Positions 5,272 through 27,461 of a stretch of DNA of 27,461 bases are shown one piece after another. The stretch's first letter is position 1, and each line of letters starts with the position of its first letter. The DNA is taken from IMG/VR virus record IMGVR_UViG_3300044782_000003, positions 1-27,461 of that record, one strand, 5' to 3'. The translations under genes were made by a program, and so were the position numbers. The notes under the pieces were generated by a model. The model did no database searches and had not been told where the DNA came from. It saw only the letters and a program-made list of their open reading frames with translations. This DNA comes from a virus (lineage: Duplodnaviria > Caudoviricetes).

Positions 5272-5363
5272 CCTGTTTGCGCGCCTCTCAGGGCATCCAC
5301 GGCATTTGTGATAAACGCAATTATTTTTTTAGTCACTAGTGAATAACTGGCATGATATTTAAT

Positions 5364-5384
5364 AAGTGACAAATAACGTCACTT
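5364..5384. promoter_or_regulatory. Operator-like palindrome 1: AAGTGAC-N7-GTCACTT
   Basis: Perfect 7-bp inverted arms; overlaps the -35 of the putative sigma70 promoter. Confidence 0.7.
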
Positions 5385-5394
5385 TATGTACAGT
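5366..5394 (+). promoter_or_regulatory. Putative sigma70-type promoter for the HNH-HTH gene
   Basis: GTGACA (5366-5371), 17-nt spacer, TACAGT (5389-5394) in an AT-rich intergenic region. Confidence 0.45.
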
Positions 5395-5397
5395 AGT

Positions 5398-5414
5398 GTG
5401 ACAATAATTGTCAT
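5398..5414. promoter_or_regulatory. Operator-like palindrome 2: GTGAC-N7-GTCAT
   Basis: GTGAC AATAATT GTCAT with inner perfect TGACAAT-A-ATTGTCA; 32 bp from site 1; covers the predicted transcription start. Confidence 0.7.
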
Positions 5415-5431
5415 ACAGGAATAAATAACCA

Positions 5432-5968
5432 ATGAAGCCGAAATGTGTTGTTTGTAATGAGACTGTTCTTAAATCTCAAAATACCATGTGCGGAAACTGC
5501 CTAGCGGCAAAGGTAATAATCCAGCGATCAGCCGCCTCCATGATGGCGCTTCACGGCATTACGCGGGCGTCTGGCGTGTGCGTTGATTGCGGAATACGTC
5601 CTGCCACCTGCCGCGATCACAGGCACTATGCAAGCCCGTTAAAAGTAGACTTTACCTGTAGTCCGTGCAATATCAGGCGCGGCGCTGCACTTGACCTTAT
5701 TGAACTGATAAAGGCGCACAGAGGTTTAATAGCTATCCAGGCGAATGAACCAAAACCTGACTTATGTGAATATAAAAGAGATGATTCTGTGCTACCTGAC
5801 TTCGCGGCCGGTTTCAACCTTACAAAATACATATCCGAATTTGAACAGTTAGTCATTCAAAAAGCTATCGCTCAAACTGGTTCAAATAAAACAAGTGCAG
5901 CAAAATTACTGGGTATATCCTTTCGAGCACTGCGTTATAAGCTAGAAAAACTTGGCCTTGATATGTGA
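5432..5968 (+). CDS. HNH-like Zn-finger domain fused to Fis-type HTH (PilR/NtrC-like C-terminus); putative regulator
   Basis: CxxC..CxxC, then CVDC..DHRHYASPLKVDFTCSPCN (HNH-like, same family as 3530-3814); C-terminal ISEFEQLVIQKAIAQTGSNKTSAAKLLGISFRALRYKLEKLG is a Fis-type HTH; no GAFTGA/AAA+ or receiver domain. Confidence 0.8.
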   Translation: MKPKCVVCNETVLKSQNTMCGNCLAAKVIIQRSAASMMALHGITRASGVCVDCGIRPATCRDHRHYASPLKVDFTCSPCNIRRGAALDLIELIKAHRGLIAIQANEPKPDLCEYKRDDSVLPDFAAGFNLTKYISEFEQLVIQKAIAQTGSNKTSAAKLLGISFRALRYKLEKLGLDM

Positions 5969-5981
5969 CGCTATTGGTCAC
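5965..5981. promoter_or_regulatory. Palindrome 3: GTGAC-N7-GTCAC, at enhancer (UAS) distance from the sigma54 promoter
   Basis: GTGAC GCTATTG GTCAC overlapping the stop codon of the HTH gene; centre ~97 bp upstream of the predicted +1. Confidence 0.65.
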
Positions 5982-6043
5982 CTGCGCCATGATAGATTGC
6001 ATCTCACTATCACTAAAACACTGTGTTTACGTATACGCCAACT

Positions 6044-6059
6044 TGGCACGGTGGTTGCA
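6044..6059 (+). promoter_or_regulatory. Sigma54 (RpoN) -24/-12 promoter
   Basis: TGGCACG-GTGG-TTGCA is an exact match to the TGGCACG-N4-TTGCW consensus; intergenic; predicted +1 near 6070. Confidence 0.75.
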
Positions 6060-6070
6060 CTAATTATGGC

Positions 6071-6157
6071 ATGCGAGACCTAGCCGAGATCATCGAATAC
6101 CTGCTCAGGCGACTCGCTGACCGGATCGCCAAGTGGCGGAAAAAGGAGACTCCATGA
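6071..6157 (+). CDS. Small amphipathic peptide (28 aa), probably leaderless
   Basis: MRDLAEIIEYLLRRLADRIAKWRKKETP*; ATG at the predicted sigma54 start; ATGA overlap with next gene. Confidence 0.45.
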   Translation: MRDLAEIIEYLLRRLADRIAKWRKKETP

Positions 6158-6363
6158 AAAAGATTCGTGACCTATCGGAAACACAGCTTAGGGCCAAGCT
6201 GGAAAAGCTTGGGTTCAAGCCGAACGGATTTATGGGCTATTACTCGCTGCCATCTCCATGTGCAGCGATCAGCATTAGCAAGTTTAATGCTGGTTCAAAC
6301 AGACGCGCACAGCTCGCCTATCTGGTTCGCGAGTTCAACAAATACAAAAAGGATGGCCCATGA
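6154..6363 (+). CDS. Small basic hypothetical protein (69 aa)
   Basis: Strong SD AAGGAG before ATG 6154; MKKIRDLSETQLRAKLEKLGF... Confidence 0.7.
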   Translation: MKKIRDLSETQLRAKLEKLGFKPNGFMGYYSLPSPCAAISISKFNAGSNRRAQLAYLVREFNKYKKDGP

Positions 6364-6494
6364 CCACATGCACCGCACTCGTGATATTCCTGCTGGGGTT
6401 CCTGGTGGGATGTCTGTTCAAACTGTTCCAGCTGCGCCGAGCTAATTCGGCTTGTCAGCGCGAGCTGGTGTTTCTCAAGAGGCAGGCGGATTAA
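6360..6494 (+). CDS. Small single-pass membrane protein (44 aa)
   Basis: MTTCTALVIFLLGFLVGCLFKLFQLRRANSACQRELVFLKRQAD*; ATGA overlap; hydrophobic helix followed by basic residues. Confidence 0.55.
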   Translation: MTTCTALVIFLLGFLVGCLFKLFQLRRANSACQRELVFLKRQAD

Positions 6495-12528: not shown

Positions 12529-15174
12529 TCATCGCTCGATAGCTGCGCCAAGAGCTGGCGCGCGGTATGGCGCGAGTTCACCAGGCCCCCACCAAAAATC
12601 CTGTCCGTATTCTTTCGCCGTGCGCTTTCTGATTGACTGAAGGTATCCTGGAGATAGCGTCTCAAATATGTTCTGGAACACCAGATGATCGATCGCGGTC
12701 TTCGTGTACCAGAGGTTTCCTCCTGGAATGAACCCTTTCAGGTCTTGCGCGGTCTGTGCGGCAAGGTGAGTTTCTTTGCCTTCAATGGCTTTCGCTGCGG
12801 CATTCATGGGCTGTACAAGGCCAATCTCCAGCAGCGGACCGACTGTTGGTCCGGCAAGAGATTCAAGGATACCGGACCCGTAACGGGTATGATTCGCGCC
12901 GTAGAGGAAATCACCGTAGATGCCGAGTGCCCCTCCCTGAAGGAAGGACGCCGACCAAAACTTGTACCAGTTCTCATCCATCATCGATCGCGGGTCTTTT
13001 CCGCTAAGCATGTCTCTGGTCTGCATGAGCATGGCCCCTGCCAGAGTCGTGGAACCGATCAGGAAAGCCGTCATTGCCGCCTTGGACGTTGGTCCGTCCA
13101 TGTTTGACACCGCATCCATGCCACGTTGCAAGAACGCCCACGGGAACGACTTAAACTGCAACACGGAGCGCACAATTTCTCCCTTGACGGTGCCGCGTTG
13201 TAGATCACCATAGAACTGAGATCGCTCGCGCCATCCGGGCGTGACAATGGCGAAATCGCTCTCGGTGTTGACAGCGCCAAGGAGCTTCACAACCGCTTTG
13301 CGGCGGATGTCGGCGGCGTCCACGTCAGCACCGAATGCCTTCTTGATGTCGGCGTCCGGAATACGTGCGATGGATTCAGAGGTCAAAACGGCATCGTTTC
13401 CGCGCCCGAGGTCGTCTAGCTTGGCGAGCTTCCAGACATTCCAGTCTGTTTCCGTGATGCCAAAATTCTTTAACGTGCGAGTGTCTGTGTCATGAAGTTT
13501 GCCGAATTCAAGGCCGCCCTTGATCTGGTTTCCAATGGCGCCCATGAGCGACAGACCGAACGCACCCTTTCGGATTTCGTTGATGGCGTTCATGCCGGAA
13601 ATTCTCATCACGGCGTTTCCAATCTTGCCAGCTCCGGACTTGAACGAACCGGACGTACCGGCCCCGCCGCCTCCCAATCCCTCGTACACACGATTCAGGC
13701 CAGATCGAATACCCTCCAACATAAGGCCGTTCTGCTGCAATAGACGACGGTCGGAAGAGTTCTTTGGATTGAGCAGAGCAAGTTCATTCCGCCACCGCTG
13801 AATAATCGGCAGATCGTTCATGTGCGAGACGGCTTCCATCATCGGCTTGTCACCGAAGAACGAGGCAATCGATGCACCACCAAGTTTGCCGGCAACGTTC
13901 AGGCTTGCGATGCCGTCTGCGATGTTCGAGACGGTAAGATTTGCAGATGGCTTGATCTTCCCGGATGCGTAGTTGTAGAAATTATCGAGCTTGTGCGCAC
14001 GTCCCTCAATGTCAGTGGTCTTCGTAGGTTCAGCCTTTGTCATCTTCTGAACGGCGATATCTCGGAGCGTGCTGTAAGTCACATCTGGATTCGGGCCGAA
14101 GTGTTCAACAAAGGCGATGTCGCGGGACATCGTCTCAATGTGTCCGTGCAATATTTCAACGGCGGTCTTCTCTCCGAACATATTCCAGTAATTCAGGATG
14201 GAGTCTGCGTCCGGGAAGTGAATCTGCCTGTGTTCCGCGTGCCGTCCGGCGCGTCGGCCTGAACCAGCGACTACGCCAACTTCCTGCGTGGCATGGCCAT
14301 CTGTGGAAATATTGTCCCATGCCTTTTCAAGCAATCCGCGCAAGTCACCTTCGGCGAACGGGTTTCCTAGGTCGTCGATGTAATACTTTCCTCCGTCTCG
14401 GGTCTTCGACATGAGCGGCAGCATATGGTTAACCCACGCCTTGCGGTTCACGGCCGGGTCGTTGCTCTTTTTGCCGGTGAGGTAAAAGGCCGCATCCGCT
14501 ACCTTCAACTGACTGTGATGCTGAGGAAGGTACGGATCGTTTAGCTTTCCGATGTCGCCGCCGTTCTGGTTGAACACCTGGCGGGCTTCCTCCGCAACAT
14601 CGTGGAACGCTTTGGCCCCATTCTTGGCGATGGCGTTTCCGGTATCTTCGCCGCGTAGTTCCTTGATGAGCACCGTGAGCTTTTCTCGGTCTTGGAAGAA
14701 CCCGAAAAAATCATTACCGAGCGCATCCCACGCCGGTAGCAACCGACTCTGGAAGTAGCTTTTGTACCCGGCGACCTTCTGCTCAAGGCTCTCTATATTG
14801 GTCCGGCCGCTGTAGTCGCGCGCCATCAGGTTCTTAACGGCCTCGATGCCGTCCATATTCTGCATGAGGCCATCGAGTTCAGACTTTCGGGCGCTCAAGC
14901 GCGCTATCTGGAGCTTGGTGCGAGTGGCCGATACTTCCGATTCGTGGATGAGTTCTTTTGCGGCGCGGTCTGCGGCCATCTGGAACAATTGGTCACCGGC
15001 CACTGCCTGCTGAACATTCTTCAGTGGCGCCTTCAAGTCGCCCACGTCCACGCGTCCGGCCTTTATGTCGAGCGCCGCTTTGTGCAGCTTCTCGAAGATG
15101 GTTCGCACCTCGTCGTCGGTCAGGTCACGGCCAGCGGCACGTTTAAGACCTTCGATACATTTGATATAACTCAT
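12529..15174 (-). CDS. Large internal virion (DNA ejection) protein
   Basis: 881 aa, alpha-helical; YLPQHH, HRQIHF.DA, GTVKGEIVRSVLQFKSFP, GGALGIYGDFL and PGGNLWY motifs of epsilon15-like podophage core proteins; last of the ejection genes. Confidence 0.8.
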   Translation of the reverse strand: MSYIKCIEGLKRAAGRDLTDDEVRTIFEKLHKAALDIKAGRVDVGDLKAPLKNVQQAVAGDQLFQMAADRAAKELIHESEVSATRTKLQIARLSARKSELDGLMQNMDGIEAVKNLMARDYSGRTNIESLEQKVAGYKSYFQSRLLPAWDALGNDFFGFFQDREKLTVLIKELRGEDTGNAIAKNGAKAFHDVAEEARQVFNQNGGDIGKLNDPYLPQHHSQLKVADAAFYLTGKKSNDPAVNRKAWVNHMLPLMSKTRDGGKYYIDDLGNPFAEGDLRGLLEKAWDNISTDGHATQEVGVVAGSGRRAGRHAEHRQIHFPDADSILNYWNMFGEKTAVEILHGHIETMSRDIAFVEHFGPNPDVTYSTLRDIAVQKMTKAEPTKTTDIEGRAHKLDNFYNYASGKIKPSANLTVSNIADGIASLNVAGKLGGASIASFFGDKPMMEAVSHMNDLPIIQRWRNELALLNPKNSSDRRLLQQNGLMLEGIRSGLNRVYEGLGGGGAGTSGSFKSGAGKIGNAVMRISGMNAINEIRKGAFGLSLMGAIGNQIKGGLEFGKLHDTDTRTLKNFGITETDWNVWKLAKLDDLGRGNDAVLTSESIARIPDADIKKAFGADVDAADIRRKAVVKLLGAVNTESDFAIVTPGWRERSQFYGDLQRGTVKGEIVRSVLQFKSFPWAFLQRGMDAVSNMDGPTSKAAMTAFLIGSTTLAGAMLMQTRDMLSGKDPRSMMDENWYKFWSASFLQGGALGIYGDFLYGANHTRYGSGILESLAGPTVGPLLEIGLVQPMNAAAKAIEGKETHLAAQTAQDLKGFIPGGNLWYTKTAIDHLVFQNIFETLSPGYLQSIRKRTAKEYGQDFWWGPGELAPYRAPALGAAIER

Positions 15175-17114
15175 GCCAGACCCATAATGCAGCCAGCGGC
15201 TATCTTGAACAGGTTGGCGTCTTCGGTGGCTTTTTTCATAGTGGCGTCGGCTTCGTCAAGCATCTGTTTCGCGCTCTTGGTAATCGGCATTCCGTCTGCG
15301 TCATTGCCGACGTTTATCTTTAGGTCCGGGTTTTCATTCACGAACTGTCTGGCGGCATCGGTTAGTGGATCAACAGAAGTATCATCTTTGGTCTCCGATA
15401 ATCTCTCCTGTTCTTTGCGCATGTTGTCAACAGTCTTGACTTGTTCTTCCGGCGATACAGGCTTACCGTTCACATCAAGAATCTTGACGATACTGTCGTC
15501 GAATACAACGAAGTTAGAGGTTCCTTTACCTGTGCCTCTTGAGGCTTGGTCTAGGTAGCGGATACCGGGGATGCCTTTACTTTTCAGATATTGAGATGCT
15601 TCCGGCCCACGTCCAAGAATGGCCTCGAATGCAGCACCGCCAGCATCTATAATGTCGAATACATTCAAGTTCATCGACTTTGCTACTTTTGCTGATTCGT
15701 CCTCACCCATACCGGCTGTTTTCTGCCAATACTCCGCAAGCCTCGGATGCTTTTTCTTAGCTGCGGCAATTAATGCGTTTCTAACAACCTCCGGTTGCTC
15801 ACTCAAAGGTTTGTCCCAGTCAAGGAAGTTCTTAACGGCTGAGTCGGAGATGTCTACTTTGTAGAGTGATGGTGGATTTATATCTAGCATCTCAACACCG
15901 CCAAACGGTCCATCTCCACCGGGCGTGAAGGTTTTACCGTTCTGCCTTCCTACGGCATAGCTTTTTGCAACACCCGGAGACTCCGCAAAATACAAACCAT
16001 ACCCATAAGCCTGCGCCCCTTCTCCGGTGCCGATCTTGTCCATGCTGAATTTATCGAACTTGTGCGGGGAGCCGTGGTAGGCGATTTGTTTAGGTATGCC
16101 TTCCTCCTGGCGAACCAGATCCGATTCTGTGATGAGGTCACGCAGCCGCGCCATGTTCTCGGCGTCGCGCACCGGATCGGCATCGATCCTTGCGGCCGGC
16201 AGGTCATCCACATTCACCGGCTCGTCCCGAGACATCTGGTCTATGGCCTTTCGCGCTCTGGTCACATGCGCGTCGATGTCGGCCACGTCCACGGGATTAC
16301 CGCCGAGACTGTCGCTATTCAGGTGCTGGGCCTGCCGAAGCACGGCCAACGCCTCGACATCGGATGGCTTCAGGTTCTTTCCCCATGCCTCGATATTCTT
16401 CCAAGCCTCCGATCCCTGCGCACGCTGCGCCGGTGAGACGTGCGCGAGCGTACCGAAGGCGAGACCCAGCAGTACATCGAGCGTGATCTGTTCGCCGTCG
16501 AACGCCTTGAACTGGCCTTCTGCCTTGGTTCCTTCGAGAATTTCCCCGGACACGCCTCGCGTCACGGCACCCTGCACCACGTTGGCGGCGGCACCGCCAA
16601 CCAGCACGCGTTGCACCAGATTCTTTCCGAGGATCGGCAGCCAGACGCCAAGGCCGAAACCGAGCCCCTGCACGGCACCGACCTCCTGCGCCTTGGTGGT
16701 ATCGACACCGGCGCGCGTCAGATCTTCGCCCGTGGTGAGTTGCGTCTTGGCGACAGTGAGAGCCGGCGAGGCAATGACCATTGGCAACGTGGAAAGTAAC
16801 GTGCCGGCCACCTGCCCGGCCAAGCCAACCTCGCCCGGCTTCGGCGTCCAGTAATCCACGGCATCGCCAAACAGTTCGTCATGCGCTTTGAAGTACCGGT
16901 CGCTGGCTTCCGTGCCACCATTCACGGCGTCGTAAAGTACCGGAACAGATGCCATCGCCATACTAAATGCGCGGCCGCCCTCGGCGAAGCCCTTCATGGC
17001 TGTCTGGCCGGTGCCACGAAAGAATCCATCGAAGGCTCCTGGGTCGGAGTGACTGACAATAGGCGTTTCTTCCACGCGCTTCAGGTTGTCGTCCTCGAAC
17101 AGGGATAGGCTCAT
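15171..17114 (-). CDS. Internal virion protein carrying an ADP-ribosyltransferase-like (polyvalent-protein type) domain
   Basis: Gly/Ala-rich hydrophobic N-half typical of ejection proteins; AYHGSPHKFDKFS..IGTGEGAQAYGYGLYFAE...GIPGIRYLD...NFVVFD; ends AAGCIMG. Confidence 0.75.
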   Translation of the reverse strand: MSLSLFEDDNLKRVEETPIVSHSDPGAFDGFFRGTGQTAMKGFAEGGRAFSMAMASVPVLYDAVNGGTEASDRYFKAHDELFGDAVDYWTPKPGEVGLAGQVAGTLLSTLPMVIASPALTVAKTQLTTGEDLTRAGVDTTKAQEVGAVQGLGFGLGVWLPILGKNLVQRVLVGGAAANVVQGAVTRGVSGEILEGTKAEGQFKAFDGEQITLDVLLGLAFGTLAHVSPAQRAQGSEAWKNIEAWGKNLKPSDVEALAVLRQAQHLNSDSLGGNPVDVADIDAHVTRARKAIDQMSRDEPVNVDDLPAARIDADPVRDAENMARLRDLITESDLVRQEEGIPKQIAYHGSPHKFDKFSMDKIGTGEGAQAYGYGLYFAESPGVAKSYAVGRQNGKTFTPGGDGPFGGVEMLDINPPSLYKVDISDSAVKNFLDWDKPLSEQPEVVRNALIAAAKKKHPRLAEYWQKTAGMGEDESAKVAKSMNLNVFDIIDAGGAAFEAILGRGPEASQYLKSKGIPGIRYLDQASRGTGKGTSNFVVFDDSIVKILDVNGKPVSPEEQVKTVDNMRKEQERLSETKDDTSVDPLTDAARQFVNENPDLKINVGNDADGMPITKSAKQMLDEADATMKKATEDANLFKIAAGCIMGLA

Positions 17115-23872: not shown

Positions 23873-24325
23873 TTACTGATTAAGCTGCGTTCTGCGGACG
23901 TACTTTCGTTTAGGTACTTCTGATTCTGCATCTTTTTTAATCAATGGTGGGTGGACGATGGATGTCTCTTTAAACCCCTCATCAAGCATCAAGCCAACCG
24001 TCGGCCACCATTCTCCGATCTGCACGGCAACCCTTGAGAACACCGTTTTCGTCATGGGCTGATATGGGTTGGCGTCGTTCGTTTGTATCGTCTCAATTTC
24101 CTCGCACACCACGAATCGACCACACGCCAGCAGTTTCGTTTTATCGTGGTTCAGGAACATGATGTTGAACAGAGTTCCACACCCCCAGCCTTGCGCGTGA
24201 AGGATTCTCGGAAGCTCTTTGTGAAGGTCAACCTGGTCGCGCGGTTGATTGAACTTGATGGTCGGGCAGTCCGGTGTGGCTTGAATGTCAGGGTAGATAA
24301 GCATGCTGTTTTCTCCAATTGTCAT
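23873..24325 (-). CDS. Hypothetical protein (start may be 24304)
   Basis: Open frame between the glycosyltransferase and tail tube A; basic C-terminus PKRKYVRR. Confidence 0.6.
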   Translation of the reverse strand: MTIGENSMLIYPDIQATPDCPTIKFNQPRDQVDLHKELPRILHAQGWGCGTLFNIMFLNHDKTKLLACGRFVVCEEIETIQTNDANPYQPMTKTVFSRVAVQIGEWWPTVGLMLDEGFKETSIVHPPLIKKDAESEVPKRKYVRRTQLNQ

Positions 24326-24908
24326 AGATCAGTTTGTCTTGCCGCTTTTGGTGCTTTCGGTATGTTTCGTCAATCAATGCTTTACCGTTACTGAAATGGT
24401 GATGCTCCAACTTTACACCGGCAACTTCTCTGTACACGCCTCTGCTCTTCGACACGTCGCCCCAGACAGTGTCGATATAGATTCTGTCTAATCCTGGAAG
24501 TGAGAGCCATCCCATCGAACGAACGAGGTCTTCACCAATCACGAAGTGCGGGCAACCTCCGGTCGTTTCGCCACCAGCGGGAACGGCCATGCCGTCGTTA
24601 CCTGCTACTTCAATCAGTTTTGTGTCCCAGCCGTGGGTGATCGGCACAACATCATCGGCGATGAATCCATACCACGGCTCGTTCGGATGACGTTCAAATG
24701 CGTGGTTGTAAACTCTCGCCAATCCGCCGCGAGACTCAAACACGACATTCCAATTTTCAAATGGGGTTTTTATCTCTTCGTATTGCTCACGGAACGGGTC
24801 GTCAAGGTCTAAGCACAGTTCGCACGGTGTCGATGCGCCAGTCAGATGCCAAGCACCGATAAGCCGCAACAGATTATGCGGTCGTGAGCGAGTCGGAATT
24901 ATCCACAT
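24288..24908 (-). CDS. GT-A (family 2-like) glycosyltransferase
   Basis: IIPTRSRP N-terminus, YGFIADDVVP..GWD (DxD-like), YIDTVW, LEHHHF..GKA..DETY. Confidence 0.7.
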   Translation of the reverse strand: MWIIPTRSRPHNLLRLIGAWHLTGASTPCELCLDLDDPFREQYEEIKTPFENWNVVFESRGGLARVYNHAFERHPNEPWYGFIADDVVPITHGWDTKLIEVAGNDGMAVPAGGETTGGCPHFVIGEDLVRSMGWLSLPGLDRIYIDTVWGDVSKSRGVYREVAGVKLEHHHFSNGKALIDETYRKHQKRQDKLIYDNWRKQHAYLP

Positions 24909-25797
24909 ATTGCTTTATTGCGCCACGCCCGGAACCAATTGCACGCTTTAACATCTCCATGTAAATCATCTTCGGGTGATACCGTGTTCTGACTTCTTCA
25001 GACAGTCTTTGCGCGTAACGGTCAATCGTGGCGTCGTCTATATCTCTGGCGATATCGGCGGCTTCTTTCGGGTCTCGGTAGATCATGTAGCAATCTGATG
25101 GAAACCAGTTCCCGATGGGGGAACCTTCTGATTCCAACAGGGCGCATCCGGCCCACCCGGCTTCCAGAACTCGGCCCTTTATGTGGTTCCTGTGACCAGA
25201 GCCGGTCAGTGAAATATTCAATACCATCCGACAACGACGTAAGAAACGCGCATGGTCACGGTAAGTATCACCGCTTTGACGATGACGAACTTCAAGGCCA
25301 CCAAACCACTCCAAGGACTTCACGATTTCAGAACGGCCGTTCCACTTTCCAACGGACCCGGAAAAACCAAACCGGATATCCTTCTCTACCTTGATATCGA
25401 ATGGTCTGGTATCAACCGGCGTCAGCGTGGATAGATCGACCGGCGCGTCGGATGGTCCGTCTATCCCGACCTGTAAATCAAAGCACCGCATGCGAGTGTA
25501 AGTTGCCAGCACCGGATGCCAAGGTCTATCAGCGGAGTCTGAGCAGAAATTAATGGTTGGGGCGATACGCCTCAATTCCTGGTATGTCTCGGGACGCGGG
25601 TTGCCTAACCCCTTCATCGCGCCTATGTAGAAGATCACATCAGGTTTTGCCGCTCTGACGGCATCGATAATCACCTGATCGTTACGGATTCCTTCGTGAT
25701 TGAACGTCACTTGTTCTGCTGGGCCGAATGCGGATTCCCACGCCATGACGTGGTTGATGCAATCGCTGGTTGAGGTCGTGAGAAAAAGACCCTTCAC
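24874..25797 (-). CDS. GT-B glycosyltransferase (CgeB / Glyco_trans_1_2-like)
   Basis: KPDVIF, DI.FGFSGS...R, RMVLNIS..HIKGRVLEAGWAGCALLE, EVRTRYHP; GTG start overlapping the kinase stop. Confidence 0.7.
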   Translation of the reverse strand: MKGLFLTTSTSDCINHVMAWESAFGPAEQVTFNHEGIRNDQVIIDAVRAAKPDVIFYIGAMKGLGNPRPETYQELRRIAPTINFCSDSADRPWHPVLATYTRMRCFDLQVGIDGPSDAPVDLSTLTPVDTRPFDIKVEKDIRFGFSGSVGKWNGRSEIVKSLEWFGGLEVRHRQSGDTYRDHARFLRRCRMVLNISLTGSGHRNHIKGRVLEAGWAGCALLESEGSPIGNWFPSDCYMIYRDPKEAADIARDIDDATIDRYAQRLSEEVRTRYHPKMIYMEMLKRAIGSGRGAIKQYVDNSDSLTTA

Positions 25798-26768
25798 GAA
25801 ATCACAATCTGGCTTCCGCCGTTCTCAATCTTAAACGGGATATCGTGCAATCCGCCCATAGCCTCTCGTACCGAAGCATGGCGATCTTCTGGTACGTAGA
25901 ATAGAAAGAACCCGCCGCCACCGGCTCCCAGTATCTTGCCACCAATGGCCCCTGCTTCGCGGGCCGCTGTGTATAGGCCGTCTATTTCCTTATTGGACAC
26001 CTTGTCGGACAGTTCTCGTTTAAGCATCCACGTCTCGTCCAATAGTTTACCAACGTCATCCAGTCTTCCATTCGTCATGGCTTCGAGTGCTTGCGGGACG
26101 AGTCTTTGAATAGCCTTCAGCTCGAATTCTTTGCGATCGATGTTCGATACCTGGGCATCGGCGATCTCGGATGAATTGCGCTGTAGTCCGGTAAAGAACA
26201 GCATGAGTTTCCCTTCCAGAACCGCTTTGCGCTCAGGAGGTATAATCACGGGACGCAACGTGTATTCACCGTCTCGGTGTATCTCAATCAGGTTAAGCCC
26301 ACCATGGGAACATTCTATCTGGTCCTGAATGCCAACGGTTTCCTTCAGGACGACCTGCTCCACTTCAATAGCCTCACGGGCAAGCCGGTCTTTACTGACA
26401 TGCCTGCCTTGAAGGGCGTGCAGGGCGTGCAGCATCCCAACCGTGAAGGCAGAGGATGATCCAAGCCCAGACCTTGCCGGTAGGTCTCCTGCATGGTTTA
26501 TCTCGAATCCTTCATCGACACCCATGTACTGGAGACACCCACGAACGCCTGAATGCTCAATCTCTCTCAGAGAATTGACACGTTCCATCTTCGACCAGCA
26601 GGCGTTGTATTTGTATCCTAGAAATGCAGGCATGTAGCGGACTGACAGGTAGCAATACCTGTCGATGGTGCTGGTCAGCACCATACCGCCGTGCTCTTTA
26701 TACCAACGCGGATAGTCTGAACCACCGCCGAACAGAGAGCACCTATACGGAGTCCTCGTTATTATAAT
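25794..26768 (-). CDS. hddA: GHMP kinase, D-glycero-D-manno-heptose 7-phosphate kinase (HddA-like); non-canonical ATT start
   Basis: (I)IITRTPYRCSLFGGGSDYP..Y..HGG; DLPARSGLGSSSAFTVG; VGIQDQ; LFFTGLQR; GAIGGKILGAGGGGF. The conserved N-terminus extends 28 codons above the track's ATG (26684) to ATT 26768. Confidence 0.85.
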   Translation of the reverse strand: MIITRTPYRCSLFGGGSDYPRWYKEHGGMVLTSTIDRYCYLSVRYMPAFLGYKYNACWSKMERVNSLREIEHSGVRGCLQYMGVDEGFEINHAGDLPARSGLGSSSAFTVGMLHALHALQGRHVSKDRLAREAIEVEQVVLKETVGIQDQIECSHGGLNLIEIHRDGEYTLRPVIIPPERKAVLEGKLMLFFTGLQRNSSEIADAQVSNIDRKEFELKAIQRLVPQALEAMTNGRLDDVGKLLDETWMLKRELSDKVSNKEIDGLYTAAREAGAIGGKILGAGGGGFFLFYVPEDRHASVREAMGGLHDIPFKIENGGSQIVIS

Positions 26769-27160
26769 GACGCTCTCTCCCTTATGAATTCTCTAGAAGA
26801 CCTTAGTTTCCCACCACCAATACCGAATAATTCCGTGATCCTTAATCGTTCGCACGCAACATGTTCACGCGGGTCGGCTTGCGTTCTGTCACCGCCATTC
26901 GCAAAGTACGTCGGCATTATCTTTTCCATGGCTTCGCAAGCTGTACCATCGCTATCGTCGAATGGCACAACGTGGGCCACATGGCGAAAAGCCAAAAGTA
27001 CTTCGGCTCTCTCTGCCCACGGTACCTGTGGAGATCCTTGTTTGCGCGCCAACCACTCGTCTGAGTTGAGCGCCACAATCACGTCTCCAAACTCAGCCGC
27101 AGACTGGATCAGTCGAACATGTCCTATGTGTATTATTGAAAATCCACCGGACACCATCAC
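26762..27160 (-). CDS. Cytidylyltransferase-family nucleotidyltransferase (RfaE/HldE domain II or TagD-like)
   Basis: VSGGF..IHIGH (HxGH), VALNSDEWL.RK, ER.EVL, FANGGDR, GGGK..SS. Confidence 0.85.
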   Translation of the reverse strand: MMVSGGFSIIHIGHVRLIQSAAEFGDVIVALNSDEWLARKQGSPQVPWAERAEVLLAFRHVAHVVPFDDSDGTACEAMEKIMPTYFANGGDRTQADPREHVACERLRITELFGIGGGKLRSSREFIRERASL

Positions 27161-27461
27161 CGTTGTAATGGGGAACCTCGCTTTACCTTATCTCGCCAGT
27201 AGGTCAAAAGGTCTTTCATGGTTTGCTCGAACGGTATTACTGGTTCCCACCCGGTTCTTGCTTTGAACTTAGCGCAGTCTGGAACCTGTAGGTCCGCGTC
27301 TACCGGCCGCAGGCGGTCAGGATCAACCTCAATACATATCTTGTTTGTGGACATGGAAAGCAAGGTATTGAGGATGTCTCCTACTGTGCAAGTGTGCGAA
27401 CCGCCTATGTTGTACACCTCGCCAGGTGTTGGATTAACAGTCAGCAGCATGTGATACGCCC
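27157..27461 (-). CDS. NAD-dependent GDP-sugar 4,6-dehydratase/epimerase, C-terminal part (GMD/Rmd/WcbK-DmhA-like; partial)
   Basis: RAY.ML, GEVYNIGG, VDPDRLRPVDADLQVPD..KF...TGWEP.IPFEQTM.DLL.YWR; the frame is open to the window edge. Confidence 0.85.
   Translation of the reverse strand, partial: AYHMLLTVNPTPGEVYNIGGSHTCTVGDILNTLLSMSTNKICIEVDPDRLRPVDADLQVPDCAKFKARTGWEPVIPFEQTMKDLLTYWRDKVKRGSPLQR

Follow-up and report, generated by a model that had tools for sequence, protein, structure and literature searches.

The 27,461-base virus record IMGVR_UViG_3300044782_000003 (Caudoviricetes), analysed here as a whole and called the window, carries an 804-base-pair (bp) swappable cassette (5299..6102) that consists of the gene for a 178-residue fusion protein, three palindromic boxes and a sigma54 promoter, with three small open reading frames (ORFs) downstream. 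Comparison with cellular loci indicates that the palindrome is likely a binding site of PilR, the regulator that acts with sigma54 on the type IV pilin gene pilA, and that the fusion protein likely reads such sites through a PilR-type helix-turn-helix (HTH). This finding is real and well supported in silico. The interpretation favoured here, at about an even chance, is that host PilR drives the mini-operon and that the phage protein, itself autoregulated, competes for PilR boxes, among them possibly those of host pilA.

Palindromes of the form GTGAC-N7-GTCAY are present at 5366-5382, 5398-5414 and 5965-5981, as an original prediction made from the sequence had reported, and their number is beyond chance. 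The window contains six strand matches in four places, compared with a mean of 0.19 and a maximum of 2 in shuffled sequences, and three or more palindromes were found in 0 of 300 simulated windows. A scoring matrix constructed from 36 boxes in pilin promoters of genomes ranks 5366, 5965 and 5398 as the top three sites of the window (25.3, 22.7 and 22.5 bits, respectively). The remaining match, at 654-670, is one-sided and internal to an ORF; its score is 13.7 bits versus 22.5-25.3 bits for the three boxes. Predicted PilR boxes 1 (5366..5382) and 2 (5398..5414) flank the 5' region of the fusion gene itself; box 1 overlaps the -35 element of a weak sigma70-like promoter and box 2, located 32 bp (three turns) past box 1, covers the expected transcript start of the gene. 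Pairs of boxes spaced by 31 bp are likewise found upstream of pilin genes in loci L051 and L053. The stretch immediately ahead of box 1 contains a sigma54 -24-like element (5347-5363) whose -12 departs from the consensus; it may be what is left of a second, decayed promoter.

Predicted PilR box 3 (5965..5981), the candidate enhancer, overlaps the stop codon of the fusion gene and is followed on the plus strand by a consensus sigma54 -24/-12 promoter (6043..6059) with an exact TGGCACG-N4-TTGC core at 6044-6058 and a predicted start near 6070. An exact core also occurs in 28 of 300 simulated windows and is weak evidence taken alone, but it gains weight from its position. The end of box 3 is 62 bp from the sigma54 site; the distance of about 97 bp that had been assigned to this gap is that from the box centre to the predicted start. 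The phase of the spacer (9.5, compared with 9.35 for pilA promoters) puts the arrangement in helical phase with pilA promoters. No Rfam match was found in the window.

The palindrome was assigned to PilR by comparative genomics, since the box tracks pilR-pilA intergenic regions and pilin promoters. A metagenome scan for loci of the fusion gene yielded cellular pilR-type loci, and the 80 best cellular matches to the phage HTH then served for reference. Among these loci, 72 extend at least 400 bp downstream, and in 28 of the 72 a type IV pilin gene is located no further than 900 bp away. Within the 400 bp that follow the activator gene, TGAC-N7-GTCA occurs in 18 of the 28 loci with a pilin versus 1 of the 44 others (Fisher p 5e-9), with a background of 0.016 per 410 bp, and the boxes in host pilR-pilA regions often begin 12-60 bp past the stop codon. 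A pattern search of genomes (box, 45-75 bp, sigma54 core) returned 120 matches from 18 of the 64 parts of the collection. Downstream of the pattern, 37 of the 120 have a gene for type IV pilin; they come from Massilia, Pseudomonas, Thioalkalivibrio, Deltaproteobacteria, Holophagae and other groups. Pilin is the one downstream gene that clearly recurs across several phyla. In each of five genomes with a box-preceded promoter, the phage HTH has its best match in an AAA+ activator whose helix has the pattern R-x-[LMI]-R-Y. The promoter type also recurs in Steroidobacteraceae and other gammaproteobacterial bins (L143, L153, L167, L182, L186, L195, L230, L234, L236, L149, L151, L156, L190 and L219) before a small gene and approximately 200 bp before a DnaJ-like gene, and these promoters are possible further PilR targets.

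The fusion ORF (5432..5968, plus strand) comprises an endonuclease-VII/HNH-like domain (residues 1-100), a flexible linker and a Fis-type HTH (residues 130-174). The HTH_8 family of Pfam matches residues 135-174 (E 5e-12). An AAA+ domain was detected with neither Pfam nor NCBIfam, in agreement with the claim of an HTH without a motor domain, and activator models match only residues 117-178. A receiver domain is also absent; the N-terminus is instead cysteine-rich (eight cysteines) and endonuclease-VII-like. Lacking both defining domains, the protein falls outside the PilR family. The recognition helix is of the PilR type, and a sequence search produced 13 full-length relatives and 82 HTH-only matches. 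Among the HTH-only matches that carry names, 35 of 40 are called PilR, in line with the best hits expected from the recognition helix. The phage HTH is identical to its best cellular match at 30 of 40 positions and superposes on the DNA-binding domains of Fis and the NtrC family in structure comparison. A single origin is not rejected in an HTH tree (p-AU 0.124), which fits one capture from hosts as well as repeated captures, and a nearest-neighbour count of 18 of 33 is biased because the reference set was chosen with the window protein. The homodimer prediction score (0.34 versus a mark of 0.42) was not used as evidence.

Further relatives were collected by a profile search over 1.84 billion representatives. 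Sorting by script gave 53 rows with both domains, 32 of them with a strict PilR-type helix, counts that include near-duplicates and some misassigned rows, and 37 hand-picked sequences were aligned. They constitute a family of at least 37 fusions of a zinc/endonuclease-VII-like domain with a PilR-type HTH, without AAA+ and at 30-90% identity. A separate group of proteins of 190-310 residues (P0129, P0132, P0135, P0137, P0138, P0143, P0148 and P0150) contains 2-4 tandem PilR-type HTHs and no other Pfam domains; one cluster has a Deltaproteobacteria bin record.

Sigma54 promoters require an AAA+ activator (PMC7170775). The contig encodes none, so that activation would have to come from the host, most likely from PilR at box 3, and a protein that has the recognition helix of PilR without its motor should bind these boxes too but fail to activate. 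On host demand for pilin, phosphorylated PilR on box 3 would open the sigma54 promoter and express the 28-, 69- and 44-residue ORFs. The phage protein on boxes 1 and 2 would limit its own transcription, and host PilR on these boxes would limit the regulator gene likewise, giving a mutual-exclusion switch. The phage protein would also compete with PilR at box 3 and at host pilA boxes, damping both the mini-operon and pilin synthesis, and with fewer pili, rivals that use pili would infect less. Zinc-stabilized DNA contact or oligomerization would be the main role of the N-terminal domain. Judged from the sequences, the window promoter is probably activated by a PilR-type activator, and binding of the boxes by the phage protein is equally probable; that it acts without cutting appears fairly probable, and a measurable effect on host pili is somewhat doubtful. 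The link to PilR made in the original prediction has comparative support from both the protein and the DNA, and the absence of AAA+ is confirmed. Competition and autoregulation are inferred, as are the repression of host pilA and superinfection exclusion.

The phage protein might instead assist the activator, either by bending DNA as Fis does or by pairing with PilR to raise the activity of the phage promoter. The superposition on Fis and NtrC-family domains fits such a role, as does the lack of a site for integration host factor (IHF). The recognition helix is the same as that of PilR, however, and should lead the protein to occupy the site that PilR needs, and boxes 1 and 2 overlap the predicted promoter of its own gene; an assisting role is accordingly rated as very improbable.

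Several observations weigh against a PilR-read promoter with a competing phage protein. The sigma70-like promoter candidate (5366..5394, plus strand) that had been placed beneath boxes 1 and 2 matches at 9 of 12 positions and is not above chance (one found, 2.6 expected), and a search for an IHF-like site between box 3 and the sigma54 promoter gave none. The published hallmark of Pseudomonas aeruginosa PilR is worded differently, as TGT-N11-AGA and GTCT elements, in the available text of PMC6058289. A full-text literature search for a PilR footprint on TGAC-type sites at pilA gave no result, and a PilR motif was not found in the accessible part of the eLife atlas from SELEX. A strict sigma54 core is present in only 2 of the 28 pilR-pilin loci. 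Among the proteins, 4 of the 37 fusions have a different recognition helix (RTTL type), the putative nuclease residues are conserved although a pure repressor would not need them, and no loci of other fusion genes were found in viral contigs or genomes. The module is also found in 0 of 16 cultured phages tested, several of which we take to be pilus-dependent, so pilus dependence does not imply the module; terminase-based searches for a cultured phage with the module found none.

A further point of this kind is that 83 of the 120 genome matches lack a pilin gene within 500 bp. Together with the 44 of 72 top HTH loci that have no adjacent pilin gene and the lack of a firm grouping of the window protein with any PilR clade in the HTH tree, it could indicate that promoter and protein answer another sigma54 activator with a PilR-like helix, and thus a signal other than pilus demand. 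The box nevertheless tracks the pilin gene and not the activator gene in the reference loci, and the recurrence of pilin in several phyla is matched by no other downstream gene, which makes a different activator distinctly unlikely.

The conservation of the N-terminal domain bears on a reading that was not part of the original prediction, a nuclease role. The 100 N-terminal residues have a confidently predicted fold (pLDDT 96) and contain a CxxC..DH..CxxCN motif with conserved histidine and asparagine. In the 37 aligned fusions Cys50, Cys53, His63, Cys76, Cys79 and Asn80 are invariant and Asp62 is at least 90% conserved; Asp62, His63 and Asn80 presumably correspond to the D-H...N active-site pattern of endonuclease VII. 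The Endonuclease_7 match of the window protein (E 0.003) is under the Pfam cut-off, and matches to this family occur in 14 of 61 family members. In profile comparison the domain matches the phrog_2340 endonuclease ORF of the window itself with a probability of 95%, and the best Foldseek match is the HNH nuclease PacI (E 0.054). The resemblance to endonuclease VII/HNH is a consistent one, yet in no case does it reach significance, either by Pfam cut-offs or in comparison with solved structures; of the HNH-Fis fusion described originally, the Fis-type part is firm and the 'HNH' part weak. The domain also stands alone in phages, e.g. Xanthomonas phage CP2, which was rejected as a carrier of the module as it has the N-terminal domain only and no boxes. 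A phage gene next to terS (L002:5692-6162) encodes a T5orf172/MUG113 domain fused to a PilR-type HTH and is flanked by TTGAY-N6-GTCAA palindromes that overlap sigma70-like -35 elements; it is a second, independent fusion of a nuclease-like domain with a PilR-type HTH.

The protein could accordingly be a nuclease guided by PilR boxes, in which the HTH delivers the endonuclease-VII/HNH-like domain to the host pilA promoter or to PilR-driven promoters of rival phages, or by which the cassette spreads by homing, with its own boxes serving as operators. The conserved residues, the family, profile and structure matches, the sharp edges of the cassette described below and the L002 fusion are consistent with this possibility. 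The presence of three boxes in its own genome is not. In the one cassette-free allele compared, that of the relative L406, the slot contains no box. Free-standing homing endonucleases of the I-TevI type have a separate DNA-binding domain and repress their own synthesis. The phage protein resembles them in its nuclease-like domain, linker and HTH, in the operator-like sites at the 5' end of its gene and in its swappable cassette, but its HTH is borrowed from a host activator and its nuclease activity is putative. A guided nuclease is considered unlikely, although it is the strongest of the alternatives.

The cassette, with 43% G+C compared with 50-53% in its flanks, has sharp boundaries: contigs of related phages diverge from the window at 5298 and rejoin it at 6055, 6071 or 6103. 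One X2 contig has other upstream and spacer DNA, yet TGGCAT-N5-TTGC is kept at the same position. In L406, a relative with 80-88% DNA identity in the flanks, the slot is filled by 529 unrelated bases that contain neither a box nor a sigma54 core nor a regulator gene, a joint absence. L406 also lacks the 69-residue ORF and the start of the 28-residue ORF and keeps the 44-residue membrane ORF, so the link of the downstream ORFs to the gene, boxes and promoter is a loose one. The module is therefore accessory, and the 44-residue ORF, which the original prediction had included in it, is not tied to it. The alternative cassette (L406:1472-2000) contains a terminator-like hairpin, short repeats and a 53-residue ORF.

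The order of HTH end, box and sigma54 promoter copies that of host pilR-pilA regions, which suggests that the module may have arisen by capture from such a region. It could then be a mere relic without a regulatory role, formed by recombination that brought the 3' terminus of pilR from a host, together with the following pilA promoter, into an HNH-like gene of a phage; the short distance from stop codon to box in many host loci and the dispensability of the cassette are compatible with this. Nevertheless, both domains are kept in at least 37 fusions at 30-90% identity, two further boxes lie upstream of the gene and the sigma54 core persists in the relative with other upstream DNA. Capture may also explain the origin without excluding a function, and a functionless relic has little probability.

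The promoter type, predicted to be read by PilR, is not confined to the window. The pattern of box and sigma54 promoter is present in 50 viral contigs, which represent 36 independent clusters, compared with 7 contigs for a control with a six-base sigma54 spacer and 4 for a control with an eight-base palindrome spacer. The spacers between box and sigma54 site show a 10.5-bp periodicity (Rayleigh test p 0.0016) with a phase of 9.0, close to those of the pilA promoters and the window; this test was relied on instead of a count of 31 of 36 clusters 'in phase', for which the bins were picked post hoc. Extra boxes are found in 20 of the 36 clusters versus 0 of 7 controls. In 12 of the 36 (at most four ORFs per locus were scanned) a gene for the terminase large subunit lies upstream on the opposite strand, so that the promoter heads the other arm. 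Among 77 clusters selected solely for tandem boxes, a strict sigma54 core lies within 200 bp in 10 and is absent in 67, and none has a core with a spacer of 3, 4, 6 or 7; at least four of the 10 are contigs already among the 50. No homologue of the 178-residue protein was seen at the viral loci of either type.

The clusters (L083-L132) belong to unrelated viruses, and the promoter of the L087 group drives an anti-restriction gene. On a 117-kb viral contig (L100:2500-3100), the genes for portal protein and DNA polymerase are separated by a type IV pilin gene that has a box and a sigma54 promoter of its own. A Ca. Aalborgicola genome bin (L144) shares the promoter, the first ORF and a terS-like gene with viral cluster L122, possibly as a host link or as a binned phage contig. 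A more general proposal would be that many unrelated phages use copies of the host pilA promoter to express early genes and that a widespread family of nuclease-like proteins with a borrowed PilR HTH silences or cuts PilR boxes, both those at the pilin locus of the host and those in early promoters of rival phages, with L002 as a second, independent version; this appears rather unlikely.

The three small ORFs are real reading frames joined by ATGA overlaps, as originally described. The 28-residue ORF (6071..6157, plus strand) has no family match, and the X2 and X9 contigs join the window exactly at its ATG. This codon lies approximately one base past the predicted transcript start, suggesting that the ORF is likely leaderless, and there is no Shine-Dalgarno sequence. 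The 69-residue ORF (6154..6363, plus strand) is soluble and optional, being skipped (6151 to 6358) in the X1, X2 and X4 contigs as well as in L406. It belongs to a small family without assigned function, with seven relatives at 48-62%; none was found in viral contigs, and there is no Atlas match above 0.80. The 44-residue ORF (6360..6494, plus strand), the last gene of the plus-strand arm, has one predicted membrane helix (hydropathy 2.41 over 19 residues) and a weak LapA_dom match under the cut-off.

Family searches assign a RecE-like exonuclease, CsrA and small genes to the plus-strand arm, which extends to 6494, and lysis, tail and internal virion proteins to the minus-strand arm, so that the module sits at the end of the plus-strand arm where both arms converge. 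The largest virion protein is approximately 36% identical to its counterparts in the podoviruses phiV10 and SPN1S, and a search of metagenome runs gave a sediment run as the best match to the window; no RNA run was among those listed, a negative that was not used as evidence. The CsrA homologue (2663-2845), above the NCBIfam cut-off, is a second copy of a host regulator in the plus-strand arm. A protein of the virion region (15171-17114) has an ART-PolyVal-like insert at residues 337-394, just under the Pfam cut-off. Upstream of the tail genes (24288-27450) are a GHMP kinase, a cytidylyltransferase, a dehydratase fragment and two glycosyltransferase-like ORFs.

No description of a phage-encoded PilR-like protein or of phage control by sigma54 and PilR was found in the open-access literature. 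Control of pilA by sigma54 and PilS-PilR is described for Pseudomonas aeruginosa and Xanthomonas oryzae (PMC7170775, PMC6058289). The module shares with this system the sigma54 core, upstream palindromic boxes at pilA-like spacing and a PilR-type helix; it differs in being phage-borne, in driving small phage ORFs, in a protein without receiver or AAA+ domain and in a box consensus unlike the published elements. The P015 promoter of Pseudomonas phage YuA, labelled 'sigma54-like' (bioRxiv 10.1101/2023.10.13.562163, PMC10914365), was rejected as a precedent, since the 50 bp listed there do not contain TGGCAC-N5-TTGC and YuA lacks the box and sigma54 module.

The closest precedent is that of the CtrA-regulated pilitropic and flagellotropic phages of alphaproteobacteria and their 'lytic deferment' (PMC9437464). 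In both cases phage promoters carry sites for the host's appendage regulator. The regulator and sigma factor are different, with PilR and sigma54 absent from the available text of that article, and the phage described here additionally encodes its own predicted site-binding protein. Phage pilus inhibitors that act in superinfection exclusion, Aqs1 on PilB and PfsE on PilC, bind assembly proteins (PMC12939059). They are likened to the module by their proposed outcome of fewer working pili and as small accessory genes, and the 178-residue protein would act on pilin transcription instead.

If the proposed mechanism is correct, jamming the DNA code of the pilin activator would tie phage expression to receptor status. 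Type IV pili commonly serve phages as receptors. The mechanism would also provide a route to superinfection exclusion at the level of transcription, where known inhibitors act on assembly proteins. The analysis yields a testable cross-phylum PilR box and 36 independent lineages of viral promoters with a predicted requirement for RpoN and PilR, and the protein family could serve as a tool for switching off pilin transcription.
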